Part shown: positions 5,272 through 58,432 of the stretch, in pieces
Position numbering within the stretch: position 1 is the stretch's first letter
Layout of the letters: each line of letters begins with the position of its first letter
Assembly (NCBI GenBank): GCA_949294555.1
Contig: CASFHP010000010.1
Coordinates: 34,191-98,190, forward strand
Direction of reading: 5' to 3'
Source: an uncultured Eubacteriales bacterium
GTDB taxonomy: Bacteria > Bacillota > Clostridia > TANB77 > CAG-508
DNA: 64,000 bases
The notes under the pieces: model-generated
What the model was told of the DNA's origin: nothing
The model's database searches: none
The model's input: the letters and a program-made list of their open reading frames with translations, nothing else
Translations under genes and position numbers: made by a program

Positions 5272-6204
5272 TTAAAGCTTCTCTAAAAATTTCTTTTTCA
5301 TCTCATAAGATGAATGAACATAACGATTTAATGTAACATCCACACTGGCATGCCCTAAAATTTCACTGAGTGATTTTATATCCATTCCTACTTTTATACA
5401 ATTGGTTGCAAATGTATGTCTTAACACATGAAAATTATATTCCTTTACTTTACTAGCTTTCAAAATTCTTTTAAACATATTTTGATAACTTCTTGGTTCA
5501 ATATATTGTTCTTTCGACCCTGTTAAAAAAAAAACTTCTTCGCCTTGTTTTTTATACAAATCTTTTAATATATGATAAATCTTATCTGACATGGGTATGG
5601 CTCTTATGGAAGATTCTGTTTTACTACTATCTATAATAACTTCTGTTTTCTTTTCGATTGTATATACTCTCTGTAAGGTTTTCTTTATATTAATTAATTT
5701 CTTTTCAAAGTCTATATTTCCCCACTTTAATGCACAAATTTCTCCTATTCGCAATCCTGTATTTAAACAAATCAGTATGCCTATACTTTTTAAACTATTT
5801 TCTTTTAAACAATATTTTTCTAATCTATTAATCTCCTTCTTTGATAACACACTAATTTCTTTTGCGTGCACTTTTGGCGAAATAATCAAATCCAAATGTA
5901 TATTCATGTCATATTTTTGATTGGCATATTTTAAAATTGATTTCAAAACATTCAGTATTTCTTTTACTGATTTTGGGGATAATTCTTTTGTTAAATCATT
6001 TGTCATTTGATTAAAATCGTATTTTTCTAAGTCTTTTTTTCTTAGTCTTCCTATTCTATCTTTTAAATATTTATCTATGCAATATGCATATTTATAATAT
6101 GTAGATTGTTTGATTGTTGTCTTCTTTAAAGCTAACCATTCTACTGAAAGTTCTTCAAATCGAATGGTATTGCTTCTACTTCTTAATTTATCTAATATCC
6201 ACAT
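5272..6204 (-). CDS. Tyrosine site-specific recombinase (phage-integrase family)
   Basis: 310 aa. C-terminal catalytic region GLRIGEICALKW ... HVLRHTFATNCI ... LGHASVDVTLNRYVH (R, HxxR, H/Y residues). Confidence 0.85.
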   Translation of the reverse strand: MWILDKLRSRSNTIRFEELSVEWLALKKTTIKQSTYYKYAYCIDKYLKDRIGRLRKKDLEKYDFNQMTNDLTKELSPKSVKEILNVLKSILKYANQKYDMNIHLDLIISPKVHAKEISVLSKKEINRLEKYCLKENSLKSIGILICLNTGLRIGEICALKWGNIDFEKKLINIKKTLQRVYTIEKKTEVIIDSSKTESSIRAIPMSDKIYHILKDLYKKQGEEVFFLTGSKEQYIEPRSYQNMFKRILKASKVKEYNFHVLRHTFATNCIKVGMDIKSLSEILGHASVDVTLNRYVHSSYEMKKKFLEKL

Positions 6205-6533: not shown

Positions 6534-6579
6534 AAAGATGTAACTAAAATTGGTTTTTTTATAAAAAGGAGGAAAACAG

Positions 6580-7188
6580 ATGCAAAAATTATTCAAAACC
6601 AAAAAGGAACGGCTGTTATTATTGGGATTAATTCTTTTAATAATTGGCAGCACGATGTTGCTCGTGGCAACACTCTTAAACAAGAAAAATATTGAGCAGG
6701 AGCTCAAAAATGGAGATTTGTCTCCTGCGCAGGAAGCTTATGAGTACCTGCTCAAAAATGGAGACCTGTCTCCAGAACAGTCAGTTGGTATTGTTGCCAA
6801 TATTCGGCAACAGTCCAATTTTGACACATCTGTCCATGAGGGAGAGTTCCCCTCAACAGGACTAATGTGTTGGACAATGGCTCGTGAAGAGCAATTGTCC
6901 GAGTTCGCAAAGGAGCGTGGAGAAGAAGTCACAAACTTCTATCTCCAACTGGACTTTATTCTGGAAGAGTTAAAAGACTCTTCAGAATACGCCAATTTTC
7001 AGCTGGCTAACTATCATGGTTACACAGTTGAAGATTGGAATGAAGCCCAATCTTCTGAAGAGGCTGCCTTAGCCTTTGCATATTTATATGTACGGCCAGG
7101 GCACCTCAACGAGACAACTCTTAGGGACTTGGCAGCAGAACTTTCTGCTGAGGTCCCTCAATCCTCAAAAGGCAGTCAAGTTCTTTGA
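6580..7188 (+). CDS. Membrane-anchored/secreted protein with a lysozyme-like (phage-tail-lysozyme-type) domain; GC-richer than its surroundings
   Basis: 202 aa with an N-terminal TM helix (LLLLGLILLIIGSTMLLVATLL). Segment GIVANIRQQSNFD...GLMCWT...LDFILEEL resembles the GIxGNxxxESxF lysozyme-like motif (recalled, not searched). A 69-nt sample counted by hand is about 49% G+C. Contains an internal duplication LKNGDLSP(A/E)Q. Confidence 0.5.
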   Translation: MQKLFKTKKERLLLLGLILLIIGSTMLLVATLLNKKNIEQELKNGDLSPAQEAYEYLLKNGDLSPEQSVGIVANIRQQSNFDTSVHEGEFPSTGLMCWTMAREEQLSEFAKERGEEVTNFYLQLDFILEELKDSSEYANFQLANYHGYTVEDWNEAQSSEEAALAFAYLYVRPGHLNETTLRDLAAELSAEVPQSSKGSQVL

Positions 7189-7203
7189 CTGCCTTTTGTT
7201 TTC
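7167..7203 (+). terminator. Intrinsic terminator overlapping the stop codon of 6580-7188
   Basis: aaaaggcagtcaa / ttgactgcctttt stem followed by gttttc. Confidence 0.75.
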
Positions 7204-7222
7204 TTATGCATTAATAAAAATG

Positions 7223-7405
7223 TTCAGTGTTTAATTTCTGGAAGGTATATATATTATATTTTAAGCGGATTTCGGGGGGACCGACACGCTACATACTCTT
7301 ATTAAATCAGCGATAGTCCCATGGGAGCTGATTTAGTTAGAGTATGTAAAGTGTTGGGATAGCGAAAAATATAATATATATACCTTACAGAAATTAAATA
7401 CTGAA
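7223..7405. repeat. 183-bp imperfect palindrome (MITE-like or structured element) P1
   Basis: Outer arms of about 38 nt, ttcagtgtttaatttctggaaggtatatatattatatttt vs aaaatataatatatataccttacagaaattaaatactgaa, with 2 mismatches. Inner arms are ctacatactcttattaaatcagc / gctgatttagttagagtatgta. The apex is the palindrome tcccatggga. Confidence 0.8.
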
Positions 7406-7445
7406 TCGTAACAAAAAATCTTGTATTGTTCTAGCAATTATACAA

Positions 7446-7490
7446 AATTCGACATTTTTGAGACAATTCTCAACCTGTCCCCAATTGTCT
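7446..7490 (-). repeat. GGGGAC-core repeat, family C copy (overlaps the stop of 7489-8052)
   Basis: aattcgacatttttgagacaattctcaacctgtccccaattgtct. It is homologous to 41646-41691 and to the arms of 27844-27957. Confidence 0.8.
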
Positions 7491-8052
7491 ACATATGAAA
7501 TTTTCTGATAATTGCTTCTTTAACATCTCTTGCGGAAAGTATTATGGTTAAAATAAAATTTACAATCGATATTCCTATTGCCACATAACTTAAAACATAA
7601 TTGTCTATCATCCCTTTTTGCATAAAATAAATAGGAATTAAGCTGTATATGCAAATAACTAATTGATATATGGCATATCGCATATATTTTCTATGGCTAA
7701 CAATAGTTAATACAAGCATGGTGACATTGGCTATTATAATAATGATAGGAATTGAGATTTCCAAAGACCAGCCTCCAAATCCTAAGTTATAATCTATGTA
7801 AACCGTTAATAGTGAAATGGCAATGGCTTGTATCATGACATGTCCTGCAATATTGGTTCTTTTGTCTATAGAATATTTTGCTGTTATCCACGCATATAAT
7901 ATGCCACTATTGGCAAGTGCTGCCCAATGAATTTCTGGTGTGGTTAATTTGTTGATGATGGTTAATATAATGGCAATTCCTACAGATACACCTAACAAAA
8001 TTTTTATTAACAAATTCCTTTTTTTACTATTTAATTTTTTCGGATATAGCAT
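7489..8052 (-). CDS. Polytopic membrane protein of unknown function (DUF6320-like, recalled)
   Basis: 187 aa with about 5 hydrophobic helices. It lies downstream of the HxxxD acyltransferase, as I recall for DUF6320 proteins in Clostridia. Confidence 0.45.
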   Translation of the reverse strand: MLYPKKLNSKKRNLLIKILLGVSVGIAIILTIINKLTTPEIHWAALANSGILYAWITAKYSIDKRTNIAGHVMIQAIAISLLTVYIDYNLGFGGWSLEISIPIIIIIANVTMLVLTIVSHRKYMRYAIYQLVICIYSLIPIYFMQKGMIDNYVLSYVAIGISIVNFILTIILSARDVKEAIIRKFHM

Positions 8053-8200
8053 TTATTTTTCCTTTCCGATTTGTTATCTTTCTCTTTTTTTTTCTTTTTA
8101 TTTTTTTTATTCTTTTTTATTGCTTTTATTGTGTTGACATATATGTATTTTATTTCAAATGAAGTTCGCCACTGCGCAACGCCAAAATTGTAATTATTTT

Positions 8201-9490
8201 TCAACCTTTACTATCCATGTCTAAAATTTCATTACTTTCAATGGTTACCTTTATATTCTTTTCTGTTAAAAATTTATAAAATTCTTTTTCAATACTACAA
8301 TCATCTAAAATAGAAGTAAATGTAAAGACAATATGGTTTTCAAATGAACACGCTGAACATTTTATTTTTTCAACTGGTTCTGGTGCAATTAGCATTAAAA
8401 AGTCTTCTATGTATTTTTGATATTTACCAATAATACCTATTCTTCCTATGTTTGAAAATGTGGTCGTGGTATATTTTCTAATTTCCAAATAACTTAATCG
8501 AACAATTGGCTTTTTTAATACCAATGGAATTACCTTTATAAATGGATTAGTTCCTAACTTTACATTTCCAGACATTGTTTTTTGTATTTCTTCTGGTGTT
8601 AATTTTTTGGCAAAATCTTTTTTTACAAATTCTAATATCTTTTCAAATGTATCTAATGTATCTTTTTTCATGTCTGCTTCTACAGTTATATAAGAAAAGA
8701 AATTAGAAATTGTATTTGAAGGAAAGTATTTTTTTAAATTTACTGGTATACAAACTTTTATTGGTCTTTTTCCTTTATTTTTTAAATAATTTGCTTGATA
8801 AATTGCATAAATTAATACTGCTGTTAAGTATTGGGTAATGGTTGCTTCCTGTTTCTTTGCCTCTTCTTTTAATGCTGGTAAATCTATCATTTCATGTATA
8901 GCAGAAATCGCTCCAAATTTGATTTTTCTTCCCGCCAATTTATATGCTTTTCTATTAGAGTTATTACCTTTTGCTTTTTTGTTATAATTTTTGATATAAC
9001 TATCTTCTGCTGACAAGTCAAATTTTCTCTTAATTCTTAATTCTTCTTGAAATTCCTCTTTATGTGCCAATTCTATATAATTATATACAATCTCTCTAAA
9101 AAACATAACCCCGCTATTTCCATCTGTTAAAGAATGAAATATATCAATATTGATTTTTCTGTCAAAATAGGTAACTTTGAATAAATAATTGTTATTTTCT
9201 TTTGGTTCAATGTATTTACAAGGATAGTCTTTCTCCTCTTCTACAATTGGCTTTTTGGGATTATATTCTAAATAGTTCCAAAAAAATCCATTCTTTAATC
9301 TTACTCTAAAAAATTCATATTGCTCTAATGCTTTTTCTACTGCTACTGTTAAAATCTCAGGTTGAATGGTTTCTGTTAAGAGAGCAGATAATCGAAAAAC
9401 TGTACTATATTTTTTTCCAGCAGATATGGGAAATATTTTGGCAGAATTATCTAATCTTCTCCAATATATCTTTTCTTTTTTATCATTCAT
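8201..9490 (-). CDS. Condensation-domain-like / alcohol-acetyltransferase-like acyltransferase (HxxxD)
   Basis: 429 aa. Catalytic-type motif IFHSLTDGNSG (HxxxDG). Confidence 0.6.
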   Translation of the reverse strand: MNDKKEKIYWRRLDNSAKIFPISAGKKYSTVFRLSALLTETIQPEILTVAVEKALEQYEFFRVRLKNGFFWNYLEYNPKKPIVEEEKDYPCKYIEPKENNNYLFKVTYFDRKINIDIFHSLTDGNSGVMFFREIVYNYIELAHKEEFQEELRIKRKFDLSAEDSYIKNYNKKAKGNNSNRKAYKLAGRKIKFGAISAIHEMIDLPALKEEAKKQEATITQYLTAVLIYAIYQANYLKNKGKRPIKVCIPVNLKKYFPSNTISNFFSYITVEADMKKDTLDTFEKILEFVKKDFAKKLTPEEIQKTMSGNVKLGTNPFIKVIPLVLKKPIVRLSYLEIRKYTTTTFSNIGRIGIIGKYQKYIEDFLMLIAPEPVEKIKCSACSFENHIVFTFTSILDDCSIEKEFYKFLTEKNIKVTIESNEILDMDSKG

Positions 9491-10607: not shown

Positions 10608-10643
10608 AAAATGTCTCAAAAGGAAACGTCCCCAATTGGACAC
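10608..10643 (+). repeat. GGGGAC-core repeat, family B copy 2 (identical 36-mer)
   Basis: aaaatgtctcaaaaggaaacgtccccaattggacac. Its last base overlaps the xerD stop codon (cta, 10643-10645). Confidence 0.9.
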
Positions 10644-11524
10644 TATGCTCTTGGATGTGCTTTTTTATAAATATCTCTTAAGCCTTCATCTTGGAATTGC
10701 ATATATACTTGTGTTGATGATATGTCTGAATGTCCAAGCATTGTTTGAATTGCTCTTAAGTCTGCACCATTTTGTAATAAATGTGTTGCAAATGAATGTC
10801 TCAAAACATGTGGTGTGATATCTTTTGTGATATGTGCTTGTTCTTTGTAATATTTAATAATTTTCCAAAATCCTTGTCTTGTAAGTCTGCCACCATTTAT
10901 ATTGACAAATAATGCTTTTTCATCTTCGCTTTTGATTAATACACCTCTTGCTTCTTCTATATATGCTTTTAATGCTTTTAGTGACATAGAACCTAATGGA
11001 ATAATTCTTTGTTTATTTCCGTTTTTACAGATGACATAAGCTTCCTCTAAGTTAACATCATCTATGTCTAAAGATATAATTTCTGTTACTCTCATTCCTG
11101 TTGCATAAGCAAATTCTAGCATTGCTTTATCTCTTACACCTTTTAAATCAACCGTGTCTGGTTGTTTTAGTAGCAACTCTACTTCTTTAGAAGTTAATAC
11201 ATTTGGTGTTCTTTTTTCTATTTTTGGAGATTGTATATTGGCTGTTGGGTCTACTTTTATTTTCTTATTTTTTAAGATAAATTGGAAGAATGACCTAATA
11301 GATGCAATACATCTTGATATACTTGAAGGTTTTTTTCCTTTATCTTGTAATTCTTGTATATAGTTTTGTACATCTTCTTCTTTTACTCGATTATAGTGAA
11401 TTCCGTGCTCCTCTAAATATTCTCTAAATTGTTTTAAATCTCTCTTATATGATTCCAATGTGTTTTTTGATAATTTTTTGTCATTTTCTAAAAAGTTAAA
11501 AAAGAATTTTAATTGTCTATCCAT
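10643..11524 (-). CDS. xerD: Tyrosine recombinase XerD/XerC type
   Basis: 293 aa. Motifs ATGMRVTEI, HVLRHSFATHLL, LGHSDISSTQVYM. Housekeeping-like neighbourhood next to spoIIM. Confidence 0.8.
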   Translation of the reverse strand: MDRQLKFFFNFLENDKKLSKNTLESYKRDLKQFREYLEEHGIHYNRVKEEDVQNYIQELQDKGKKPSSISRCIASIRSFFQFILKNKKIKVDPTANIQSPKIEKRTPNVLTSKEVELLLKQPDTVDLKGVRDKAMLEFAYATGMRVTEIISLDIDDVNLEEAYVICKNGNKQRIIPLGSMSLKALKAYIEEARGVLIKSEDEKALFVNINGGRLTRQGFWKIIKYYKEQAHITKDITPHVLRHSFATHLLQNGADLRAIQTMLGHSDISSTQVYMQFQDEGLRDIYKKAHPRA

Positions 11525-13581: not shown

Positions 13582-13605
13582 TTTAATACCTCTTTTCTTG
13601 TTTCA

Positions 13606-13734
13606 AGTTGCCAAAAGGTGATGATTTGGGGACGGAGATAAAATCATCATTTCCTATGAATTATTTTGTTTGATTTTTTTGAATACGAAATGATGATTTT
13701 ATCTCCGTCCCCAAATCATCACCTTTTGGCAACT
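13606..13734. repeat. GGGGAC-core repeat, family A: 129-bp hairpin with perfect 48-bp arms
   Basis: agttgccaaaaggtgatgatttggggacggagataaaatcatcatttc (13606-13653) is the exact reverse complement of 13687-13734. The loop is 33 nt. Confidence 0.9.
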
Positions 13735-13748
13735 TTTGGCAATTTTAT

Positions 13749-14729: not shown

Positions 14730-16250
14730 TCACTCAATAAATTGTGGTTTATGATTTTCTATTGTCCATTTTTTCCACCCAGAGGTTAATGTGCTGTTAT
14801 TCGTTATATATGTATTCAATTCATTAATTGTCTCATCTGTTAGCTCTTCTAACATTGTGGCATTTACTGTTATATTTTTCCCTGCGCTCTGTTGTACAAT
14901 ATTGCTTTTTAGAAAGTAGCAATTTTCAAATTTATTTGCTGAAACATTGTTCCACATTGCTGCCCCTACAATTCCTCCAATAGTTGATCCTGTTATATTT
15001 CCTGCACTATATACATTTATGCATCCTGCATGGTCATATACATATCCAATGATTCCTCCAACCGTAGCACCATTTATGTTTCCTAAATTATAACAATTAT
15101 ATATAAAAGGTGTAGCAGCTGCCGTTCTAGTTCCTCCTAAAATTCCTCCTGCCCAAATATCTCCCATAATTTTGGTTTCTTCGGAATTATAACAATTAAC
15201 AATTGTTAAACGTCCAGTACCCATGATTCCACAAATTCCTCCTGCCCATGATTTATCTCCTTCACTTATGATATTTGCTTTGTTATAGCAATTACTTATT
15301 GTTATTTCATTATATCCATTAGCAAAAATCCCACCACATTCTTCTGTTCCCATTACATTCCCACTAATGCCTAAATTTTGTATAATTCCATTATCTATTG
15401 TCTGAAATAATCCTGCTCTTCCTGTCTTATTTATATATATATTCTGTATCTCATTTGATTGTCCATCAAATGTACCTGAAAAATTCATGATTGGTGTAAA
15501 ACCACTTCCAGTAGTATTGGTTAGTAAATCTCGTAATTCTTCTATTGAATTACAATTCAAAATCTTTCCATTTGCATAAGATAATCTAGACTCAAAATTT
15601 AAAGTTCTTCCCAATTTTATATAAGCATCTTGATAAGCCTCATAATTTTGAGACCATTCTACCAAATCCTCTATACACCATATTTCATAAGGCTTTCCTC
15701 CCTCTTCTGTTTCTGCTTTTCCGTTTAATTCTTCTCCATCTATTCCAACGGTTATATCTCCTGGATATTTATCCTTTATAATTGGATACTCTCCTTCAAT
15801 ATTTCCATCTTTATCCACTATATAATATCGATCACTATCAATAAATATAACTTCAAAGTCATCTCCTACATCATTTACGTCTGTCTTTCCTTCTCCTGTT
15901 TCTTTATCTAGTTGCTCTTGTAGTTTATCCTCTTCGATATTTCCATATTTATTCTTTCCCATTGCTTGCACAATTGCTTCTTCCAAAACATCTTTCTCAT
16001 TGGCTATTTCTGCTTCTTCTTTAGCGCTTCCAGCATTTCCAATAATTCCATTATCTCCTGTTATAGCATTTATTGTAATTCCTGCTAAGATAAGTAAAAT
16101 AATAATTGTTATTACTAAGACTAATAAGGTAATTCCTGTTTGGTTTTGTATGTTAGTTTTAATTTGTGTTTTACAAAATTTGTTCTTAAAATTTGCTTTC
16201 ATTTTCTCTATTTCTCCTATGACTTTTGTTTTTTCTTCTTCTCTTCTCAT
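14730..16250 (-). CDS. Surface protein with a pilin-like hydrophobic N-terminus and C-terminal GLUG-like repeats (paralogue 1)
   Basis: 506 aa. N-terminal segment TGITLLVLVITIIILLILAGITINAITGDNGII. The C-terminal half is built of GG[IL]xG ... I.NCYN repeats (AGGICGIMG, AGGILGG, VGGIIGYVY, IGGIVGAAM). SD is aagagg. Confidence 0.65.
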   Translation of the reverse strand: MRREEEKTKVIGEIEKMKANFKNKFCKTQIKTNIQNQTGITLLVLVITIIILLILAGITINAITGDNGIIGNAGSAKEEAEIANEKDVLEEAIVQAMGKNKYGNIEEDKLQEQLDKETGEGKTDVNDVGDDFEVIFIDSDRYYIVDKDGNIEGEYPIIKDKYPGDITVGIDGEELNGKAETEEGGKPYEIWCIEDLVEWSQNYEAYQDAYIKLGRTLNFESRLSYANGKILNCNSIEELRDLLTNTTGSGFTPIMNFSGTFDGQSNEIQNIYINKTGRAGLFQTIDNGIIQNLGISGNVMGTEECGGIFANGYNEITISNCYNKANIISEGDKSWAGGICGIMGTGRLTIVNCYNSEETKIMGDIWAGGILGGTRTAAATPFIYNCYNLGNINGATVGGIIGYVYDHAGCINVYSAGNITGSTIGGIVGAAMWNNVSANKFENCYFLKSNIVQQSAGKNITVNATMLEELTDETINELNTYITNNSTLTSGWKKWTIENHKPQFIE

Positions 16251-16310
16251 TTTGATACCTCTTTTCTCGATTTTCTTTTGTTTTCAGGTATTTTTATTGA
16301 ATTTTATATT

Positions 16311-16337
16311 TTCTTTCAGTTCAATACTCTAAGAAAA
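16311..16337. repeat. Inverted repeat, left (IR-L1) of candidate inverton 1
   Basis: ttctttcagttcaatactctaagaaaa. Its reverse complement matches 16500-16525 through the 12-nt core TAGAGTATTGAA plus AAAGAA. Confidence 0.6.
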
Positions 16338-16340
16338 CAT

Positions 16341-16387
16341 AAAAAAACCTGAACCCTCTAATATATTTAGTGGTTCAGATTTTTTTA
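16341..16387. terminator. Bidirectional hairpin terminator inside candidate inverton 1
   Basis: An A7 run, then stem ctgaaccctctaa / ttagtgggttcag (1 mismatch), then a T7 run. In the present orientation it terminates the ABC-F transcript. Confidence 0.65.
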
Positions 16388-16456
16388 TTACTATAAATAC
16401 TTTTTAAAAATAAATTTTTTTCTAAAATCTTTCTTGAAATTTCTTTTATCATTTTA

Positions 16457-16485
16457 TTGACTTTACTATGTTTTATTGTTAAAAT
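16457..16485 (+). promoter_or_regulatory. Near-consensus promoter inside candidate inverton 1, pointing away from the GLUG gene
   Basis: TTGACT (16457-16462), 17-nt spacer ending in TGt, TAAAAT (16480-16485). There is no plus-strand gene downstream. Confidence 0.55.
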
Positions 16486-16499
16486 CAAATTGTAAAATT

Positions 16500-16525
16500 T
16501 TTTTTAGAGTATTGAAATCAAAGAA
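16500..16525. repeat. Inverted repeat, right (IR-R1) of candidate inverton 1
   Basis: ttttttagagtattgaaatcaaagaa. About 22 of 26 positions match the reverse complement of IR-L1 (hand alignment). Confidence 0.6.
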
Positions 16526-16615
16526 TAAAAAACTTTATTTTATAACAAAAAAGTAGAATTTTTTTCAAAATAAAAAATATATCTATATACAATTAAAAAC
16601 TTTAAGGACTAATCC

Positions 16616-18538
16616 CTAAAGTTCATTATTCAAATTTTCCCATTCTTGCATTTTTTCTTCTATTTCTTGATTGATTTTTTGGATTTCTTCTTGTAATTCA
16701 TTTAATTTTATATAGTCTGAGCAAATCTCTTCTTTTGTCATCTCATTTTCAATTTTTTGGATTTTGTTTTCTTTTTCCTCTATCTCTTTTTCAATTTTGT
16801 TCATTTTATTTTGTATTCGATTTCTTTCTTTTTCTATAAAATATGGATTGTTTTCCTTCTTTTTATCTTTTACGTTTTGAATGCTTTTTACACCTTCTAT
16901 GTTAGAATTATTTTGTTCTTCTATTATATTGTTCTGCTCTTTGTATTCCAAAAATTCTTGATAATTTTTATCATAAAAGGCCACATTCCCATTATCAAAT
17001 TCCAATATACAATCTGCTAGTTTATTGACAAAATATCTATCATGAGAAACAAAAATTAAAGTTCCTGTATAATCTTTTAATATATTCTCTAAGCTTTCTT
17101 TTCCTAAGATATCCATGTGATTTGTTGGCTCATCTAGTAACAAGACATTTGGTTCACTTTTTAGAATTTTGCACAATTGCAAACGTCCTCTTTCTCCTCC
17201 TGATAATACATTTATTTTTTTGAATACATCTTCTCCTGTAAAAAGAAAAGTTCCTAATAAGGTTCTTACTTGTGTCGTTGTTAATTCTGGAAACGTTTCT
17301 GCTATTTCTTCAAATACTGTATTTTCTGGATTTGAAAATTGCATCTGTTGATCAAAATATCCTGTTTGCACATGATATCCAAATTCAAATTCTCCATTAA
17401 TTTTAAGAATATCCCCATTTAATGTTTTTAACAAAGTAGATTTTCCTGTTCCATTTTCTCCAATAATGGCTAGTTTTTGCCCCTTATATAATTCAAAACA
17501 TACTTCTGCAATTGGCTTATCATACCCTATCTGTAATTTATCAACTTTTAATACAAGTTTTCCACTTTGTGTTTTGACATCAAAATTTGCATAAAATGTT
17601 TTTAAATCGTATTCTTCTGGCTTTTCGATAATTGTCATTTGCTCTATTTTCTTTAGTTTGGATAATGCCATTTTGGCTTTTGTTGGTTTATATCGAAATC
17701 TATCTGCAATGGCTTGTAATCTCTTGATTTCCGCTTGTTGATATTCATAATCTTTCAACTGTTTTTCATATCTTTCTCTTTTTTGTCTTTCAAAATCTGT
17801 ATAATTTCCCTTGTATTCCACCATGCTAGCATATTCTATTTCATATACTTTATTCACAATCTTATCTAAAAACATTCTATCATGAGATACAATTACAACA
17901 GCTTTAGGATAATTTTTTAAGTAATTTTCTAACCATTCAATGGCTGTAATGTCTAAATGGTTTGTTGGTTCATCTAATAATAAAATATCTGGCTTACTTA
18001 ACAACAATTTTAAGAAGGCAATTTTTGTTCTTTGCCCTCCAGAAAATTCACTTATTTTTTTACTTTTATCCTCTTCTTTAAAGCCAAATTTTTTAATCGC
18101 TGTTTCATATTCTTTTTTATACAGATATCCACCTTGTATTTCATATTGTTCTAAAGCATTGGTATATTCTTTGATTGTTTTTTCGTCTGTTTGGTCTTGT
18201 AACGCTTTTTCCTTTTCTTGTATCTTTTCTTCTAAATTCAATAAAGGAGCATACACTTCTAATATTTCCTCTAACATGGTTTTATTAGAATTTTCAAAAT
18301 TCATTTGCTTCAAATAGCCAATGACTGGATTTCCTTGTTTGTATACGTGAAACTTTTCTTCTCCAATTCCCTCTTCTAAAATGTCATTGTCTATAAGGGC
18401 ATTTAGAAATGTGGTTTTTCCTGCTCCATTTCTTCCAATAATCGCTATTTTGTCTTTTTCTTTTATTTCAAAATTGATTTCTTCTAATATGGTTTCTGCT
18501 CCATAAGATATAGAGCCATTTACAATTCTGTATTTCAT
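16616..18538 (-). CDS. ABC-F family ATPase (translation factor / ribosome-protection type)
   Basis: 640 aa with two NBDs and no TM region. Motifs GRNGAGKTT and GENGTGKST, signatures LSGGQRTK and LSGGERGR. The C-terminus is a Lys/Glu coiled coil. Confidence 0.9.
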   Translation of the reverse strand: MKYRIVNGSISYGAETILEEINFEIKEKDKIAIIGRNGAGKTTFLNALIDNDILEEGIGEEKFHVYKQGNPVIGYLKQMNFENSNKTMLEEILEVYAPLLNLEEKIQEKEKALQDQTDEKTIKEYTNALEQYEIQGGYLYKKEYETAIKKFGFKEEDKSKKISEFSGGQRTKIAFLKLLLSKPDILLLDEPTNHLDITAIEWLENYLKNYPKAVVIVSHDRMFLDKIVNKVYEIEYASMVEYKGNYTDFERQKRERYEKQLKDYEYQQAEIKRLQAIADRFRYKPTKAKMALSKLKKIEQMTIIEKPEEYDLKTFYANFDVKTQSGKLVLKVDKLQIGYDKPIAEVCFELYKGQKLAIIGENGTGKSTLLKTLNGDILKINGEFEFGYHVQTGYFDQQMQFSNPENTVFEEIAETFPELTTTQVRTLLGTFLFTGEDVFKKINVLSGGERGRLQLCKILKSEPNVLLLDEPTNHMDILGKESLENILKDYTGTLIFVSHDRYFVNKLADCILEFDNGNVAFYDKNYQEFLEYKEQNNIIEEQNNSNIEGVKSIQNVKDKKKENNPYFIEKERNRIQNKMNKIEKEIEEKENKIQKIENEMTKEEICSDYIKLNELQEEIQKINQEIEEKMQEWENLNNEL

Positions 18539-19281: not shown

Positions 19282-20439
19282 TTGAAAGTATTAAGTATTG
19301 AAACTTCTAGTAAAATATGTAGTGTAGCTATATTAGAAGATAAAAATTTAGTAAAAAAAATGGAATTAAATAATGGATTAACACATTCTGAAAGCTTAAT
19401 GCCACTTATAAAGAGAATATTAGAAGAAACCAATTTAACTTTATCTCAAATGGATTTATTTGTTTGTGATATTGGCCCTGGTTCTTTTACTGGTATTCGT
19501 ATCGGTGTCGCAACTGTTAAAGCATTTTCAGATAGCTTACAAATTCCTGCCGTTGGTATTTCTTCTCTTGAAGGGTTGGCATATGCAATCCCAAAAGATG
19601 GTATCATTTGTAGCTTGATTGATTGTAAAAATGATAATTGCTATTATGCTGTATACCAATTAGAAAATGGTCATTATTCTTTGCTAGAAAGTCCTAAAGC
19701 TGACAGTGTTGAAAATTGTTTAAATTTTCTGATTTATAAATATGGTGATTCTGCTATTACTTTTATAGGAGATGCTTGTTTAAGTTATAAAGATTTAATA
19801 AAGTCTTTTTCTTCTCAATTCTGTTTAGCAAATGAGGATTCCTCTATTTGTCTAAATCATCATATTCCTGAAAGTGATATAAATACTATTGATGTTTATT
19901 TTTTAGGACTTGCTGGATTAAAAAAATATATAAAATCTGGCGAAGATAAAGCTTTACTTCCTCTTTATTTAAAAAAGCCTCAAGCACAAAGGCAATTAGA
20001 AGGAAAAAATCTAATAATTGAAGATATGAAACTTTCTGATTTAGAAAATTTAGACATTTCTAAATTCGATGATTTTTGGAATATTCATATTTTAAAAGAG
20101 GAATTAACAAGTGAAACATCGCATTTTATTTGTGCAAAATTGGAAAATACGATAGTTGGTTTTGCTGGAATTAAGATTATCGTAGATGAAGCTGATATTA
20201 TGAATATTGCCGTAAAAGAAGATTATAGAAGACAAGGAATTGCTACTTTATTACTAAACCATATTCTTAGTCTTTGTAAACAAAAAAGCTTGAAAGCCAT
20301 TAATCTTGAAGTTAATGAAGATAATTTTTCTGCAATTTCTTTATATCAGAAATTTGGTTTTAAAGAATGTGGCAGAAGAAAACAATATTATGATAACAAA
20401 TATGATGCCATTCTTATGTCAATGGGGATGGAGAGATGA
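19282..20439 (+). CDS. tsaB: TsaB (YeaZ) fused in frame to the RimI N-acetyltransferase
   Basis: TTG start at 19282 after an aaggag SD. The N-terminal part is LKVLSIETSS...GPGSFTGIRIG (TsaB). The C-terminal part is a GNAT domain (IAVKEDYRRQGIATLLL). No stop codon separates them. Confidence 0.8.
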   Translation: MKVLSIETSSKICSVAILEDKNLVKKMELNNGLTHSESLMPLIKRILEETNLTLSQMDLFVCDIGPGSFTGIRIGVATVKAFSDSLQIPAVGISSLEGLAYAIPKDGIICSLIDCKNDNCYYAVYQLENGHYSLLESPKADSVENCLNFLIYKYGDSAITFIGDACLSYKDLIKSFSSQFCLANEDSSICLNHHIPESDINTIDVYFLGLAGLKKYIKSGEDKALLPLYLKKPQAQRQLEGKNLIIEDMKLSDLENLDISKFDDFWNIHILKEELTSETSHFICAKLENTIVGFAGIKIIVDEADIMNIAVKEDYRRQGIATLLLNHILSLCKQKSLKAINLEVNEDNFSAISLYQKFGFKECGRRKQYYDNKYDAILMSMGMER

Positions 20440-20474
20440 TTTGGGGACGGAGAAAAAATCATCTCTCCGTCCCT
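20430..20474. repeat. GGGGAC-core repeat, family A copy containing the tsaB-rimI stop codon
   Basis: ggagagatgatttggggacggagaaaaaatcatctctccgtccc. Two pairings are possible: ggagagatgatt/aatcatctctcc, or ggacggaga/tctccgtcc. Confidence 0.8.
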
Positions 20475-27843: not shown

Positions 27844-27957
27844 GACAATTTGGGACAGGTTGGGTTTTGTAGCACTTTTGTCGAATATTGTCGTTTAAAA
27901 TTATTTTATCTTTAAACGACAATATTCGACAAAAATCCCAACCTGTCCCAAATTGTC
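27844..27957. repeat. 114-bp long hairpin (family C) whose left arm is 27-bp direct repeat copy 2; the right arm abuts the eno stop
   Basis: Outer arms 27844-27870 / 27930-27957. The inner stem is a perfect 24 bp, ttttgtcgaatattgtcgtttaaa / tttaaacgacaatattcgacaaaa. Confidence 0.9.
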
Positions 27958-29217
27958 CTATTCACTTTCAATTTTTAATAATCGGTTATATTTTGCAACT
28001 CTATCTGTTCTACAAGGTGCACCTGTTTTGATTTGCATACTATTAACACCTACTGCAATATCTGCAATTGTTGTATCTTCTGTTTCTCCAGATCTATGAG
28101 AAATAATTGTTTTATAGCCATTTTCTTTTGCCATTTGAATTGTATCCAAGGTTTCTGTTAATGTTCCTATTTGATTTGGTTTTATTAGAATAGCATTTGC
28201 TACTTTTTTGTCTATTCCTCTTCTTAATCTAGACATATTGGTTACAAACAAATCATCTCCTACCAATTGAATTTTCTTTCCTAATTTTTCTGTTAGAATT
28301 TGCCAATTGTCCCAATCCTCTTCTGCTAACCCATCTTCTATTGATACAATTGGATATTTGTTACATAAATTTACTAAATAGTCTATCATTTCTTCATTTG
28401 TTTTTAAGACATCTGTTTTCCAGAAATAGTAACCATCTTTTCCAATCTTTTTGGCTTCTTCTTTCATTTCTGTACTTGCAACATCTAAGGCTAATACAAT
28501 GTCTTTTCCTGGTTCATATCCTGCTTTTTTGATTGCTTCTATGATAACATCTAAAGCCATTTCTTCATTTTCTAGATTTGGTGCAAAACCGCCTTCGTCT
28601 CCTACACCAACTGCAAATCCTTTTTCTTTTAATACATTTTTTAAGGTATGATAAATTTCTGCACCTCTACGTAATCTTTCTGCAAATGTAATATCTCCTA
28701 TTGGCATTATCATAAATTCTTGAATACTAATATTATTTTCTGAATGTTTACCTCCGTTTAATATGTTCATCATTGGAACAGGCAGTTTTTTTGCGTTAAT
28801 TCCACCTATATATCTGTATAGTTCAATTCCTAATGTATTACTTGCTGCTTTTGCTACTGCTAATGAAACACCTAAAATCGCATTTGCTCCCAAATTAGAT
28901 TTGTTTAATGTGTCGTCTAGTCGTATCATTTCTTCATCTATTTTTCTTTGCTCAAATACATTCATGCCAATGATTTTTTTACTAATTTTTTTATTAACAT
29001 TTTCGACTGCTTTTAAGACCCCTTTTCCATTATATCGATTTTTCTCCCCATCACGTAATTCTACTGCTTCAAAACTTCCTGTTGAAGCACCTGATGGCAC
29101 TGCTGCCACACCACATATTCCCTCTTCTGTTACTACCTCTACTTGTAAAGTAGGATTTCCTCTTGAGTCCAATATTTCTATTGCCTCTACATTTTTAATT
29201 AATGAACTCTTTTTCAT
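27958..29217 (-). CDS. eno: Enolase
   Basis: Motifs [32 protein letters not shown]. Start at 29217 ([10 protein letters not shown]) after an aaaggagg SD. Confidence 0.97.
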
Positions 29218-29306
29218 AAAACCTCCTTTTTGAGCAACACTGCTCTTCAAAAAATATTCTATTTACATATATATACAGTTTTTACAATTTCATGAAATCT
29301 ATACAT

Positions 29307-31316: not shown

Positions 31317-31377
31317 AATAAATTATTTTATTACGAATGTGATTGGAAATATTTTAGAATTTGTTGGATAATTTATT
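31317..31377 (+). repeat. Half-copy of palindromic element P2 (matches 58222-58282)
   Basis: ataaattattttattacgaatgtgattggaaatattttagaatttgttggataatttatt vs ataaattatttaattacgaatgtgattggagatgttttagaatttattacataatttatt, about 6 mismatches in 59 by hand. It abuts or overlaps the stop of CDS 31373-33400. Confidence 0.8.
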
Positions 31378-33400
31378 CAAATGCAGGATATCCTTCTTCT
31401 CCCAATTTCCATTTGTTCCAATCTGTTGGATATGTTTGTTCTCCTTCTTTTCTATAAGAATTTAATAAATCTACAAATTCTTGTGTCTTAATATCATTTT
31501 CTGTTTTTTGTATTGCATTGTCAACAATATTTTCATCATCTACTTTGCTCATATTTCCAATTGATTTTCCACTAGTATAATATGAATAATTAATTTCCAC
31601 TTTCATTTCTATATTGATAATATCATTATTAATTGTTCCTATCATACTTCCATAATCAGTATTTTTTCCCACAGTCCAACAATTTTCAATATAAATATAA
31701 TTCTTTGCACATATCTTTCCTTGATTTCCAACAATTCCTCCTACAATACTATTTTCATGTATTACCTCTCCAGTATTAAAAGAATTATAAATACTTAATA
31801 TTAATTCACTATCATTAGCACTTCCTTTACTTGCTCCCACAATTCCTCCTGAACCCGCTAAAGTTCCGTTTCCTAATATACTTCCTTGATTGTATGTATT
31901 CTTTATTTCAACTTTTTGTGTATTATAACCTAGAATACCTCCTACTGCACTCTGATTACTTGTTCCATTTAAAGTAACATTTCCATAATTTCCACAATTA
32001 TCAATTTTGCAGTCACTTGAATTGTTATATCCTATAATACCTCCTACTGTTACATTTCCAGATATATCTCCTTTATTTATACAATTTTTTACATTATCAC
32101 CATTTCCAATGATACCTCCTGCTCCGCCATATCCCCATCTTCTTCCTGTTATTACTATGTCTCCTGTATTTGTACAATTTGTTATCTGTGCACTATATCC
32201 AATAATGCCTCCCACCATATTATATCCTGTTACATTAGCATGATTAGTACAATTTTCTATTAAATTGGCATACTGCCCTATTATTCCACCTGTATGTCCA
32301 GCACCTTTAATTTCTCCAGAAATTTCTAGATTTTTTATTATCGTATATTGTATATGTCCTGTTCCGAATAATCCAATACTTCTTCCAAATCCATAATTAT
32401 TTAATTGTGTGTCATTCTCATAATTAATATATAGATTACTTATTTTATAAATTTCCTCTGTTTCTTTATCTTTTCCATCAAAATTTCCATAAAAAATATT
32501 ATTAAGTCCAATTGGTTTAAAACCTGTTCCTGTCGTCATCTCATTCATTAATGTGTTTCCATCATCTGCATTTCCATTTATATCTCCAAAGTCTGTTCTT
32601 TCACTATTTTGATAAGATAATTTTGATTTAAAATTCAAATTGGTTTTTAATGCTATATATTTTCCACTAAAACTATTTCTATTAGCCGTTGTTACTTGTA
32701 CTGGCTCTCCATTTTCTAATTTTATACCGCTTCCATTTACTATATTAGAAAAAGCTACTAAATCTTCTATGCACCAAATTTCATATGGTTCTGCCTCTGT
32801 TCCTGCTAATGTTTTTCCATCTGTTCCAACTGTAATATCTCCTGGATATTTATCTTCTATGATATCTTGTGCTTCTCCTACATTTCCATCTTTATCAATA
32901 GTATAATATCTTCTACTTTCTTTGAATACTACTTCAAATTCTTCTCCTATATCTGTTGCTTCTGTTTTTCCTTCTCCTGTTTCTTTATCTAGTTGTTCTT
33001 GCAATTCTGCTTCTTCGATATTTCCATATTTATTGTTTCCCATTGCTTGTACTGTTGCTTTTTCTAGTATCTCTTTTTCATTGGCAATTTCTGCTTCTTC
33101 TTTGGCTCTTCCTGCATTTCTAATTAGTCCATTATCTCCTGTTATAGCATTTATCGTAATTCCTGCTAAGATTAGTAAAACAATAATTGTTATGACTAAT
33201 GCCAGCAAAGTAATTCCCTTCTGGCACTTTACTTTGTTTTCTATTTGTTGCTTTACTACTTTTTGAATCTGTTTTTCTACATGATTTTTTTGATTTTTTT
33301 CTTCACACTTTATATTTATATATTTTTGATTTATTATTCTTTTTGTTTGTTCATTTTTATGACTTTCTTTTTGTTGTTTTCTCTCTTTCATTTTTTCCAT
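31373..33400 (-). CDS. Surface protein with a pilin-like hydrophobic N-terminus and C-terminal GLUG-like repeats (paralogue 2)
   Basis: 675 aa. N-terminal KGITLLALVITIIVLLILAGITINAITGDNGLI. The next ~150 aa are nearly identical to paralogue 1. The C-terminal repeats include TGGIIGQY, VGGIIGYSA, AGGIIGNG, VGGIIGYNN, VGGILGYN, SGGIVGAS, VGGIVGNQ. Confidence 0.65.
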   Translation of the reverse strand: MEKMKERKQQKESHKNEQTKRIINQKYINIKCEEKNQKNHVEKQIQKVVKQQIENKVKCQKGITLLALVITIIVLLILAGITINAITGDNGLIRNAGRAKEEAEIANEKEILEKATVQAMGNNKYGNIEEAELQEQLDKETGEGKTEATDIGEEFEVVFKESRRYYTIDKDGNVGEAQDIIEDKYPGDITVGTDGKTLAGTEAEPYEIWCIEDLVAFSNIVNGSGIKLENGEPVQVTTANRNSFSGKYIALKTNLNFKSKLSYQNSERTDFGDINGNADDGNTLMNEMTTGTGFKPIGLNNIFYGNFDGKDKETEEIYKISNLYINYENDTQLNNYGFGRSIGLFGTGHIQYTIIKNLEISGEIKGAGHTGGIIGQYANLIENCTNHANVTGYNMVGGIIGYSAQITNCTNTGDIVITGRRWGYGGAGGIIGNGDNVKNCINKGDISGNVTVGGIIGYNNSSDCKIDNCGNYGNVTLNGTSNQSAVGGILGYNTQKVEIKNTYNQGSILGNGTLAGSGGIVGASKGSANDSELILSIYNSFNTGEVIHENSIVGGIVGNQGKICAKNYIYIENCWTVGKNTDYGSMIGTINNDIINIEMKVEINYSYYTSGKSIGNMSKVDDENIVDNAIQKTENDIKTQEFVDLLNSYRKEGEQTYPTDWNKWKLGEEGYPAFE

Positions 33401-33469
33401 TTTCTACCTCTTTTCTTTTATTTTCCTTTGTAATTACTTAATTTGTAGCTTCTTGTCACTTACAATTTT

Positions 33470-33496
33470 TTCTTTCAGTCAAATACTCTAGGAAAA
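33470..33496. repeat. Inverted repeat, left (IR-L2) of candidate inverton 2
   Basis: ttctttcagtcaaatactctaggaaaa, nearly identical to IR-L1. Confidence 0.55.
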
Positions 33497-33500
33497 AATA

Positions 33501-33550
33501 AAAAGCAGAAATCACTTGTTATTCTTTATTTACAAGCGATTTCTGCTTTT
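33501..33550. terminator. Bidirectional hairpin terminator inside candidate inverton 2
   Basis: aaagcagaaatcacttgt / acaagcgatttctgcttt stem with A-rich and T-rich flanks. Confidence 0.65.
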
Positions 33551-33603
33551 CATTTTTTATTATTTTCATCATTTAAAATTTATATTTTTATCTTCTCTTT
33601 CTA

Positions 33604-33632
33604 TTGACTTTCCTACATTTTATTGCTATTAT
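33604..33632 (+). promoter_or_regulatory. Near-consensus promoter inside candidate inverton 2, pointing away from GLUG gene 2
   Basis: TTGACT (33604-33609), 17-nt spacer, TATTAT (33627-33632). It matches the inverton 1 promoter region at 24 of 31 positions by hand. Confidence 0.5.
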
Positions 33633-33648
33633 ATCTTTAGTTTTAGTA

Positions 33649-33674
33649 TCCTTAAGTATTTGATTCTAGGAAAA
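33649..33674. repeat. Inverted repeat, right (IR-R2) of candidate inverton 2 (more degenerate)
   Basis: tccttaagtatttgattctaggaaaa. The core AGTATTTGA plus flanks match the reverse complement of IR-L2 at about 19 of 26 positions by hand. Confidence 0.4.
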
Positions 33675-34804: not shown

Positions 34805-36325
34805 TTATTTCAAAATTTCTTTTATAACTTTCCAAATTCTATCAATAGAGCAAATAGATACTCTTTCTTTTGGAGAGTGAACATCGTAACTATTCGGTCC
34901 TATACATACATATTCGCAATCTGGCATTTTATCAGCAAAAAATCCGCCCTCTACAACACCTTGTGAGACAATTTCTTCCATCTTTTTATTAAATACCTGT
35001 AAATATGCTTTTTGACATTTTTCTAATAGTTTGTTATTTTCCTTTTTTTCTACACCTTTTAGTTCTTGATGCCATGTTATGTTTATGCCATATTTTGTTA
35101 TCAATTGTTGTAATTCTTGCAAATATTCTTTTTCTAATTCTTTTTTATTGCTTCTTTCTGAAAATTCGATTTGCATTCCATTTTTACATTCTGTTAAAAC
35201 TGCTAAGTTTGCAGATAATATGACATTTTGATTTTCTTCTCTTTTTAATGCTCCATTTTTATATTCATTTACAAAATCGATGATTTCTCTACTCTTGTTT
35301 TTAGAATATGCTTTTATTATTTCTTGATTTTGTTTATTTTCTTCTAATTTTTCTAGTACTATCGTTTCATTTTGAAATTTTTCTTTTTGCTTTTGGATTT
35401 TTGCTTGTATTTTTTGAATTACTTCTTCTGAATTTGCCTCAATATTTTTAATTTTATTTTCTCCTTCTAGTTCACCGTTACTAATTACTTTATTTGTCTT
35501 ATCCTCTTTATCTAAAACACAAAATTCTATCATAAATTCTCTTGGTATTACATTTACTCTGCTACCACCTTTTAATTTTATAATTTGAACATTGCTAGTA
35601 TTTTCTAATGCTTCCATTGCTAATTTTATTGGATTGCCTCTTTTTTCATCTCCAATATTTCCACCAGAATGTCCTCCTAAAAAGTTTTCATAGCTTAATC
35701 TATAGATTTCATTTTTTTCATTAACCATTTCTTTTTCAGCTTCCATTATCCCTACCCATTCATTGCAATTGGCCGAACTAATTAAAATCTTTCCTTCTTT
35801 TCCATTATCTAATGAAATAATTTTTCTTGCTCGAATATTTTTGGCATCTATTTTTATTGCACCAATCATGGTTGTTTCTTCTTGTACTGTAAAAATACAT
35901 TCTAGGTTTGGAATGGAGATATCACTATCTAATATAGCCAGCATGTAGGCAACACCAATACCATTGTCTGCTCCTAAGGTTGTTCCTTTTGCTGTTATAT
36001 AGTCTCCTTCTTTGTATAAATTAATAGGGTCTTTTGAAAAGTCATGTTGAATTCCGATATCTTTTTCACATATCATATCTGTATGTGCTTGAAAAGCTAA
36101 GCTTTCTTCTGTTTCTCTTCCTTTGCTTGCTTTTTTATAAATAATGATATTTTCATATTCATCTTTTACATATTCTAAATTTCTATTCTTAGCAAATTTT
36201 TCAAGATATTCTCTAATTTGTTTTTCTTCTCCAGACCTTCTTGGAATTTTACTAATTTCCGCAAAATAGTCAATGACTTTTTTGGCTTCTAAATTTTGAT
36301 AGTCTTCTAATTTTAATAATTCCAT
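34805..36325 (-). CDS. pepD: Aminoacyl-histidine (Xaa-His) dipeptidase, M20C family
   Basis: 506 aa. N-terminal FAEISKIPRRSGEE and metal-ligand segments AHTDMICEKD and GADNGIGVAY. Confidence 0.8.
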   Translation of the reverse strand: MELLKLEDYQNLEAKKVIDYFAEISKIPRRSGEEKQIREYLEKFAKNRNLEYVKDEYENIIIYKKASKGRETEESLAFQAHTDMICEKDIGIQHDFSKDPINLYKEGDYITAKGTTLGADNGIGVAYMLAILDSDISIPNLECIFTVQEETTMIGAIKIDAKNIRARKIISLDNGKEGKILISSANCNEWVGIMEAEKEMVNEKNEIYRLSYENFLGGHSGGNIGDEKRGNPIKLAMEALENTSNVQIIKLKGGSRVNVIPREFMIEFCVLDKEDKTNKVISNGELEGENKIKNIEANSEEVIQKIQAKIQKQKEKFQNETIVLEKLEENKQNQEIIKAYSKNKSREIIDFVNEYKNGALKREENQNVILSANLAVLTECKNGMQIEFSERSNKKELEKEYLQELQQLITKYGINITWHQELKGVEKKENNKLLEKCQKAYLQVFNKKMEEIVSQGVVEGGFFADKMPDCEYVCIGPNSYDVHSPKERVSICSIDRIWKVIKEILK

Positions 36326-57538: not shown

Positions 57539-58108
57539 TTATCCATATAGTTCATTGTAAACACGATAATCTCTTAAGATTTTTCTTACATAATTATTGG
57601 TTTCTTTATATGGTATATTTTCGATATCTGAGCCGTCTGCTTGTATAACTTGCTTCTCAATCCAGTTATTGACTGTTCCAATCCCTGCATTATATGCCGC
57701 AAGAGCAATTTCCATATTGCCATATTGTGTTAATAGTATTGATAGATATTTTGTTCCTATATTAATATTATTATCTATATCTAACAATTCTTCTGTAATA
57801 TTTTCTGTATCAACATCTATCTTATTTTGATTTGCAACATCAATTGCAGTTTCTTCTACAATTTGCATTAATCCTATAGCTTCCCTGTTAGAAACTGCAT
57901 TGCTGTCAAAATTGCTTTCCGCTTTTATGACTGCATATATTAAATTTTCTTCTACATTATATTCTTCTGCATATGTGGATACTATTTCACTATATGTTTT
58001 GGGGTACATTATTTTCAATAATTTATCTTTAAACAGAATAATGAGTATGGTTACTACAAGTATCATAATAACCATGCCTATTATGATTTTATATTTGCTT
58101 TTTAACAA
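57539..58108 (-). CDS. Lytic transglycosylase (SLT domain), membrane-anchored
   Basis: Motifs AVIKAESNFDSNAVSNREAIGLMQI and AAYNAG. Confidence 0.85.
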   Translation of the reverse strand: MLKSKYKIIIGMVIMILVVTILIILFKDKLLKIMYPKTYSEIVSTYAEEYNVEENLIYAVIKAESNFDSNAVSNREAIGLMQIVEETAIDVANQNKIDVDTENITEELLDIDNNINIGTKYLSILLTQYGNMEIALAAYNAGIGTVNNWIEKQVIQADGSDIENIPYKETNNYVRKILRDYRVYNELYG

Positions 58109-58183: not shown

Positions 58184-58432
58184 TGTTAATGTTCATCTGT
58201 ACGTATACGAGTGGGAAGTATTTATAAATTATTTAATTACGAATGTGATTGGAGATGTTTTAGAATTTATTACATAATTTATTGAGGAATGTTCACGGTA
58301 CTCACGTAGTGAGGGTCTGAGTGAAAGAGGCTCAAATAAATTATGTTACAAATTCTTAAATATCGTATTGAGCTGAGTAATAAATAATTTATAAATACTT
58401 CCCACTCGTATACGTACAGATGAACATTAACA
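58184..58432. repeat. 249-bp imperfect palindrome (MITE-like or structured element) P2
   Basis: Perfect outer arms of about 52 nt, tgttaatgttcatctgtacgtatacgagtgggaagtatttataaattattta / its reverse complement. Inner arms are agaatttattacataatttatt / aaataaattatgttacaaattct. The central mini-hairpin is ctcacgtagtgag. Confidence 0.9.

Follow-up and report, generated by a model that had tools for sequence, protein, structure and literature searches.

How is a gene expressed when the best promoter-like site in front of it points the other way? This question arises in a stretch of 64,000 nucleotides (nt) from an uncultured Eubacteriales bacterium, the whole of which we refer to as the window (a metagenomic scaffold, ENA ERZ16268050 scaffold_937, with a G+C content of ~28 %). 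Its intergenic region 16251-16615 lies between two minus-strand genes, that of an ABC-F ATPase upstream and that of a surface protein of 506 amino acids (aa) downstream (14730-16250), and contains two inverted sites that enclose the outward-facing promoter. Here we present comparative evidence that this element is very probably a promoter inverton, that is, a phase-variation switch for the surface-protein gene. An inverton in its OFF orientation had been proposed for this gene in an initial annotation of the window, and the proposal is now supported by a flipped copy in another assembly, by the architecture of a family of such elements and by an inversion at a paralogous locus.

The mechanism that we propose is as follows. 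Two inverted sites of 29 bp would flank 161 bp of DNA, of which one end holds a strong sigma-A-type promoter and the opposite end a bidirectional terminator. In the OFF orientation the promoter would fire away from 14730-16250, and the terminator directly ahead of the gene would block read-through from the ABC-F gene; this state should be tight, because the terminator directly precedes the proximal site. In the ON orientation the promoter would lie ~100 nt upstream of the ATG and drive expression of a surface protein that is anchored in the membrane and has a GLUG-type beta-helix. The enzyme would be a tyrosine recombinase, most likely the product of 5272-6204 acting in trans, which would bind the conserved arms of the sites and swap strands within the spacer that separates them. 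Several such switches would operate in each genome, two of them in the window, and the spacer private to each would prevent recombination between loci, so that the genes could switch independently of one another.

Direct evidence for the inversion comes from contigs of other assemblies, found through the identical proteins that they encode. Three of these contigs were useful. The first (L002, Logan ERR10610434) does not differ from the window in sequence or in orientation; the orientation is also shared by the second (L005, ERZ16268119), in which the target protein is 92 % identical. The third (L004, ERZ16268192 scaffold_4039) shares 98.9 % identity with the window across 5608 nt and begins 168 nt upstream of the ATG. 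Its bases 1-85 are identical to the plus strand of the window at 16418-16502, and its sequence from base 82 on is that of the minus strand, read downward from 16337. L004 thus carries the segment in inverted form. There TTGACT-17-TAAAAT is directed into the gene, with ~100 nt between the end of its -10 element and the ATG, which is the arrangement that the initial annotation had expected of a flip. That the segment is flipped in a sister strain argues for a real on/off switch. The junction in L004 falls within the repeat, at the inner edge of the proximal site, and has the C of the proximal repeat. L005 has this C in both repeats (a C replaces the T at 16503, giving an 18-nt perfect repeat, TTTTCTTAGAGTATTGAA), and the L004 junction therefore fits an exchange anywhere in the 18-nt stretch. 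It is compatible with exchange in the spacer if the strain has the L005-type repeat, the resolution being limited by sequence identity. A search of JGI metagenomes with the DNA pattern of this exact locus gave zero matches.

A complete inversion was observed at a paralogous switch, for which we sampled nine assemblies encoding an identical 531-aa family member (P0104). Eight of the nine (L110-L117) are OFF and identical over the 412 nt compared, namely 400 nt upstream and the first 12 nt of the gene. The ninth, L118, is a 55-kb contig belonging to a metagenome-assembled genome (MAG) at NCBI, and in it a unit of 179 nt is inverted between flanks that are 100 % identical, with both junctions inside the one contig. 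L118 is the predicted product of a conservative inversion: the inner arms are swapped, and the crossover is confined to 16 nt of identity, AG-TCAGATA-CTTAAGG, in which the spacer is included. Ten further places resemble L110-L117 and four further ones resemble L118. Positions 1-72 of L118, upstream of the distal site, are wholly unlike the OFF contigs. This reflects either strain-to-strain variation in the upstream neighbourhood or a chimeric contig start.

The sites at which this exchange occurs were described in the initial annotation as imperfect inverted repeats. The repeats are real, and a repeat finder places their arms at 16304-16337 and 16499-16532 (34 nt, 82 % complementary, gap of 161 nt). 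Their perfect core, TTAGAGTATTGAA, measures 13 nt rather than the 12 nt first reported and has no other copy in the window (minus strand 16320-16332, plus strand 16504-16516). An inverted repeat by itself is no more than suggestive, because it is expected often by chance in such DNA: at 28 % G+C, 2.9 perfect inverted repeats of 13 nt, spaced 50-500 nt apart, are expected per window. A match of 28/34 within a 365-nt intergenic region arose in 1 of 300 simulations. Unlike these repeat statistics, the comparative sequence data put the observation on solid ground. Comparison with orthologs reveals that each copy is not a simple repeat. It is a full 29-nt palindromic site made of an 11-nt arm TTTTCTTAGAG, a 7-nt asymmetric spacer and a second 11-nt arm CTCTAAGAAAA. 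The two spacers, TTCAATA in the proximal site and TATTGAA in the distal site, are reverse complements of each other. Orthologs ~70 % identical in protein have kept the arms and carry the spacers TTAAGTA and TTGGATA, each of them matched in the partner site. Judged by this anatomy, the repeats are core-type sites of the tyrosine-recombinase kind. In such sites the asymmetric spacer sets the orientation, and partners need an identical spacer.

Sites of this type are strongly enriched near genes of the same protein family. A protein-family scan of species-representative genomes returned 79 loci, with several paralogs per genome and all but one labelled as uncultured gut Clostridia, Clostridium, Clostridiales, Eubacteriales or Bacillota, and 1.3 Mb of these loci was fetched. 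An arm-7-arm search allowing up to 5 mismatches in the 22 arm positions found 78 sites in the 1.3 Mb, compared with 1-4 in shuffled sequence. Directly upstream of GLUG family genes there are 52 site pairs, spaced 166-191 nt apart from start to start, each enclosing a promoter TTGAC[A/T]-17-TAnnAT close to one of its ends. To avoid circularity in assessing the spacers, partners were picked by the similarity of their arms alone; the spacers proved perfectly complementary in 31 of the 32 pairs so selected and differed by a single mismatch in the remaining one. The 25 distinct spacers have the form T-NNNNN-A, and those of non-partners differ from one another at 1-6 positions. The layout can be described as 11-7-11 or, with the invariant T and A assigned to the arms, as 12-5-12.

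Relative to the family gene, about 46 of the pairs are OFF. Three copies are ON (L041, L071 and L004) and a fourth, L076, is probably ON; in these four the promoter sits at the gene-proximal end. In all inverton pairs the inner arms, carried along by the segment when it flips, are close to perfect, and at the gene-proximal site the outer arm consistently reads CT[G/A]AAAGAAAA, not CTCTAAGAAAA. This asymmetry may bias the direction of switching. The second inverton of the window (Table 1) is also OFF, and a look-up of its 675-aa protein with two alternative starts found neither on record. The inverton family is apparently large and undescribed. We found no earlier description in the literature of invertons controlling such proteins in Clostridia, which is not proof of absence, and a full-text search for the arm sequences returned unrelated primer matches only.

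Within the segment, the promoter predicted by the initial annotation is borne out by a score of 10/12 matches plus the TG extension, and the promoter block is the part of the segment most conserved across species. It faces away from 14730-16250 in the window, and inversion turns it toward the gene. As had also been stated, the fixed leader lacks a convincing promoter of its own: the minus strand of 16251-16310 holds zero promoter-like sites of at least 9/12. The hairpin reported at 16341-16387 is present, with strong predicted folding on both strands (-22.1 kcal/mol and z -6.9 on the minus strand, -18.0 kcal/mol and z -6.4 on the plus strand), and lies between an A-run and a T-run. The role of terminator assigned to it is consistent with this folding, and an equivalent hairpin occurs in the second switch of the window.

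Table 1. Features of the two switches in the window and of their surroundings (a dot marks a feature without an assigned strand)
Feature	Position	Strand	Details
Gene-proximal site (IR-L)	16309-16337		plus strand TTTTCTTTCAG-TTCAATA-CTCTAAGAAAA; spacer 16320-16326; 2/22 arm mismatches against family consensus
Invertible segment	16338-16498	.	161 nt between sites; OFF orientation in window assembly
Predicted bidirectional intrinsic terminator hairpin	16341-16387	.	abuts proximal site in OFF state
Predicted promoter TTGACT-17-TAAAAT, TG extension	16457-16485	+	10/12 matches; best promoter-like site of the region
Distal site (IR-R)	16499-16527		TTTTTTTAGAG-TATTGAA-ATCAAAGAATA; spacer 16510-16516
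Fixed leader	16251-16308	-	ribosome-binding site AGAGG, 7 nt before ATG at 16250
Regulated gene, 506-aa membrane-anchored surface protein, GLUG-type beta-helix	14730-16250	-	
Orphan tyrosine recombinase, candidate trans-acting invertase	5272-6204	-	Pfam Phage_integrase
Second inverton, OFF	33468-33674	.	sites 33468-33496 and 33646-33674; spacers TCAAATA / TATTTGA
Second inverton, promoter TTGACT-17-TATTAT	33604-33632	+	
Second inverton, hairpin	33505-33546		
Second inverton, downstream gene, 675-aa GLUG protein	31373-33400	-	Pfam Glug match
Upstream gene, ABC-F ATPase	16616-18538	-	
ABC-F gene terminator	16597-16624	-	folds at -12.5 kcal/mol, z -4.3

Several points weigh against a promoter inverton served by the recombinase of the window. 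The activity of the promoter and of the terminator is predicted from sequence only. The orientations were compared between assemblies and not within one population; at the locus itself the flipped copy, L004, belongs to another strain (60 mismatches in 5.6 kb) and shows the gene-proximal junction only, because the contig ends inside the segment. Contig ends inside or at the element, as in L004, L009 and L010, are no more than suggestive of switching, since assemblies can also break at the conserved 5′ coding part of the paralogs, and contig breaks near family genes could stem from this repeated sequence. Finally, the window has no site next to the recombinase gene 5272-6204, whose frame in the sister species L011 is broken at a T-run while the invertons there are intact.

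The last two points leave room for a switch that is real and is operated by a different invertase, either another recombinase encoded outside the window or the housekeeping XerC/XerD acting on dif-like sites, a possibility that we take seriously and hold to be somewhat unlikely. The 11-7-11 layout resembles Xer sites, a XerD gene lies 4.5 kb downstream in all orthologous loci, and the arm TTCCTAGAG may be similar to the XerC arm of dif in Bacillus. The XerD of the window (10643-11524), however, scores as a true equivalog (365.8 bits against the XerD equivalog cutoff of 329.6) and its position beside SpoIIM suggests a conserved housekeeping synteny; since this linkage is kept in all orthologous loci, XerD is probably a housekeeping enzyme, and we rejected it as first choice for a dedicated invertase. 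No further recombinase was found by Pfam or NCBIfam in the 40 open reading frames (ORFs) of the window that were scanned, ~15 coding-strand ORFs of at least 100 aa lying outside the scan.

It is homologs of 5272-6204, and not of XerD, that are found next to the site motif. The protein itself has no NCBIfam model above cutoff, its closest solved structures are Tn1549 Int and XerA, and its gene is syntenic in the nearest species representative, L011. Among 15 metagenome contigs retrieved by the site pattern alone, five encode a full-length homolog, 38-50 % identical, with its 3′ end no more than ~100 nt from a site. Overall, homologs adjoin the motif in L093, L094, L096, L098, L102 and L105. In L105, a MAG contig of a more distant genus, a homolog 56 % identical has two invertons with two family genes immediately after it (6560-8740). 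The arm consensus there is TTCTTTAAG / CTTAAAGAA in place of TTCTTAGAG / CTCTAAGAA, and enzyme and site may have co-evolved. The initial annotation had named 5272-6204 as a possible invertase. This stands in so far as its homologs adjoin the site motif; the argument is one of association only, by which 5272-6204 is the best candidate. In L093 (3118-4527) and L094 (653-1995) the inverted site pair flanks the recombinase gene itself. These two contigs come from other Firmicutes, and the cassette, ~1.35 kb long, stands beside a small gene of helix-turn-helix (HTH)/Xre type; it may be a self-inverting recombinase cassette.

The broken frame in L011 is not an isolated case: among the close homologs, 11 clusters end at 227-244 aa and 11 others are full length, and where it was checked (L011, P0133 and P0138) the truncation lies at or just after the T-tract. 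Truncation is no proof of lost function, because slippage can bypass a run of T10-T11. No homopolymer of at least 10 nt occurs in the window apart from the T10 tract of the recombinase gene (A10 on the plus strand, 5525-5534), and slippage could therefore make the enzyme itself variable. It could act as a slipped-strand switch, by transcriptional slippage, or the tract could mark pseudogenisation. A joint reading, in which 5272-6204 acts in trans on a common arm, at least 10 invertons per genome are insulated by a private 5-nt spacer core and the recombinase is itself switched by T10/T11 slippage, appears to us unlikely as a whole. Were it true, the entire repertoire of GLUG surface proteins could be frozen or set moving.

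Whatever the enzyme, a second explanation would deny that the element is a switch and regard the inversion as a fixed, ancient strain difference, a one-off rearrangement at a short inverted repeat. L004 and the window are indeed ~1 % apart and therefore distinct strains. We nevertheless consider this explanation very unlikely, because there are about 50 instances of this architecture, in which arms and promoter are conserved and the spacers are specific to the locus and matched between partners, a pattern that requires continuing selection for recombination competence. In addition, the second locus has both orientations between 100 % identical flanks and with an identical protein, and the contig ends at the element noted above in L004, L009 and L010, suggestive as they are, point the same way.

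More improbable still is that the outward-facing promoter represents the functional state, producing a small RNA or an antisense transcript to the 3′ end of the ABC-F gene, with repeats that are purely structural. The promoter does point away from the family gene in ~46 of 50 copies and the palindromic distal site could form an RNA hairpin, yet the upstream neighbour varies by locus while the downstream family gene is constant, and ON copies exist. Moreover, the region read from the OFF-state promoter through the distal site folds no better than shuffles (z +1.1), and an Rfam search of the region and of the whole window matched two tRNAs and nothing else. There is hardly any chance that we are dealing with a miniature transposable element with terminal inverted repeats that came to lie in front of genes by spreading: the element is short, bounded by inverted repeats and present in many copies per genome, but it inverts in place between identical flanks, the private spacer of each copy matches that of its own partner, copies always precede members of one gene family by a constant distance, the flanks 16299-16308 / 16528-16537 show no target duplication in direct repeat, and the generic site pattern has zero matches in viral contigs.

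In the preferred reading, that of a promoter inverton, the regulated protein is the product of 14730-16250. It has zero Pfam or NCBIfam matches, Glug remaining below the Pfam threshold. An AlphaFold2 model (predicted local distance difference test, pLDDT, 86.9; predicted template modelling score, pTM, 0.81) consists of a transmembrane helix (39-55), a long helix, a small sheet domain and a beta-helix (257-447). Searched with Foldseek, the beta-helix matches 3n6z, annotated as a putative IgA1 protease of Bacteroides ovatus (E 4e-8), and also 7jgj, 7uvk and 6xjb (~3e-4 to 7e-4), where the match is to the non-catalytic beta-helix of streptococcal/Gemella IgA1 proteases; no peptidase domain is present in the 14730-16250 product. 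More than 1150 relatives exist, some of them with Pfam Glug, and together with the model they place the protein with GLUG-motif beta-helix surface proteins. The description of the protein as pilin-like is not sustained, as no prepilin profile matches it in Pfam or NCBIfam and there is no Glu at +5. Its N-terminus reads G39-ITLLV, with Val at +5 (family consensus KGITLLVLVITIIILLILAG), and by its sequence resembles a pilin in appearance only. A second 506-aa ORF of the window, 34805-36325, was considered as a paralog and rejected; it encodes an unrelated M20 peptidase.

Promoter invertons are a main route of surface variation in gut bacteria and have been well studied in Bacteroides, Enterobacteria and C. 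difficile. In the fim switch of E. coli, the tyrosine recombinases FimB and FimE act on 9-bp repeats, their genes are adjacent, and IHF and Lrp are needed. The elements described here share with fim a short invertible promoter segment, a surface structure as target and an OFF bias; fim differs in being a single locus, with 9-bp repeats and adjacent recombinase genes. The sites themselves recall loxP (13-8-13), FRT and dif (11-6-11), in which inverted arms surround a short asymmetric overlap and differing spacers are incompatible. Like these, and like engineered heterospecific lox sites, they have two arms and an asymmetric centre identical in partners; unlike the engineered lox sites, they owe their spacer diversity to nature, and it occurs within one genome and serves independent gene switches. 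Within the Clostridia, the cwpV switch of C. difficile works via a terminator in the leader and not by movement of a promoter.

In C. difficile, the tyrosine recombinase RecV acts in trans on several short invertible segments (cwpV, flagellar, cmr and others), and the inverted repeats mostly bear no relation from one switch to another (PMC5903667). The present system is likewise found in Clostridia and multi-site, and one of the C. difficile targets is a cell-wall protein; unlike there, a single arm consensus is common to all switches and the spacer alone differs. The closest parallel in gene organization is the mpl (P35) lipoprotein family of M. penetrans, which comprises dispersed genes, each with its own invertible promoter, for which Xer-like tyrosine recombinases encoded elsewhere were proposed as enzymes (Horino et al. 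2003, cited after PMC2268961). Both are dispersed multigene families of surface proteins in which a short promoter inversion switches, or here would switch, each gene independently. They differ in phylum, in target proteins (GLUG beta-helix proteins versus lipoproteins) and in site sequence, and the full arm-7-arm palindromes, the private spacer per locus and the bidirectional terminator in the cassette set ours apart from mpl, whose repeats are not described as core sites with spacers of their own. In B. fragilis, one global invertase, Mpi, serves many dispersed promoter invertons for surface structures (cited in PMC5903667 and PMC2268961). Dispersed promoter invertons in a gut commensal, directed at surface structures, are common to both systems, whereas Mpi is a serine recombinase with mainly capsular polysaccharide targets and with repeats that share one core and have no locus-specific spacers. 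Relative to the known systems, it is the private spacer per locus and the cassette of predicted promoter and bidirectional terminator that are distinctive.

These elements constitute a sequence-defined inverton family in a low-G+C lineage of uncultured gut Clostridia, represented in MAGs from chicken, human, rabbit and other guts. The family supplies a site consensus, a candidate enzyme family and a putative regulon of paralogous GLUG beta-helix proteins, and the consensus enables such switches to be found in assemblies without recourse to reads. The strong OFF bias suggests that a minority of cells exposes any one of the proteins, as expected for evasion of immunity or phages. The locus-specific spacers would explain why a genome with many targets of one recombinase is not scrambled, and the sites may serve as a natural orthogonal set for genetic tools.

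Several features of the surrounding DNA may be recorded. Downstream of the regulated gene the syntenic orthologs keep the order target, 267-aa gene, 395-aa gene, SpoIIM and XerD. Between the 395-aa and 267-aa genes of the window (13605-13735) is a perfect 47-nt palindrome with a 37-nt loop, portions of which, ~30 nt long, recur in intergenic positions 919-951 and 20435-20463 as well as in L004 and L005; it looks like a repeated palindromic element of the REP (repetitive extragenic palindromic) type. Intergenic inverted repeats of ~21 nt occur at 27844-27864 / 27937-27957, beside the enolase gene (27958-29250, minus strand), and at 7242-7262 / 7366-7386. Between polA (58465-61170) and a gene with an SLT domain (57539-58108), perfect 52-nt inverted repeats (58184-58235 / 58381-58432) surround ~145 nt of higher-G+C sequence and are unrelated to the inverton sites.

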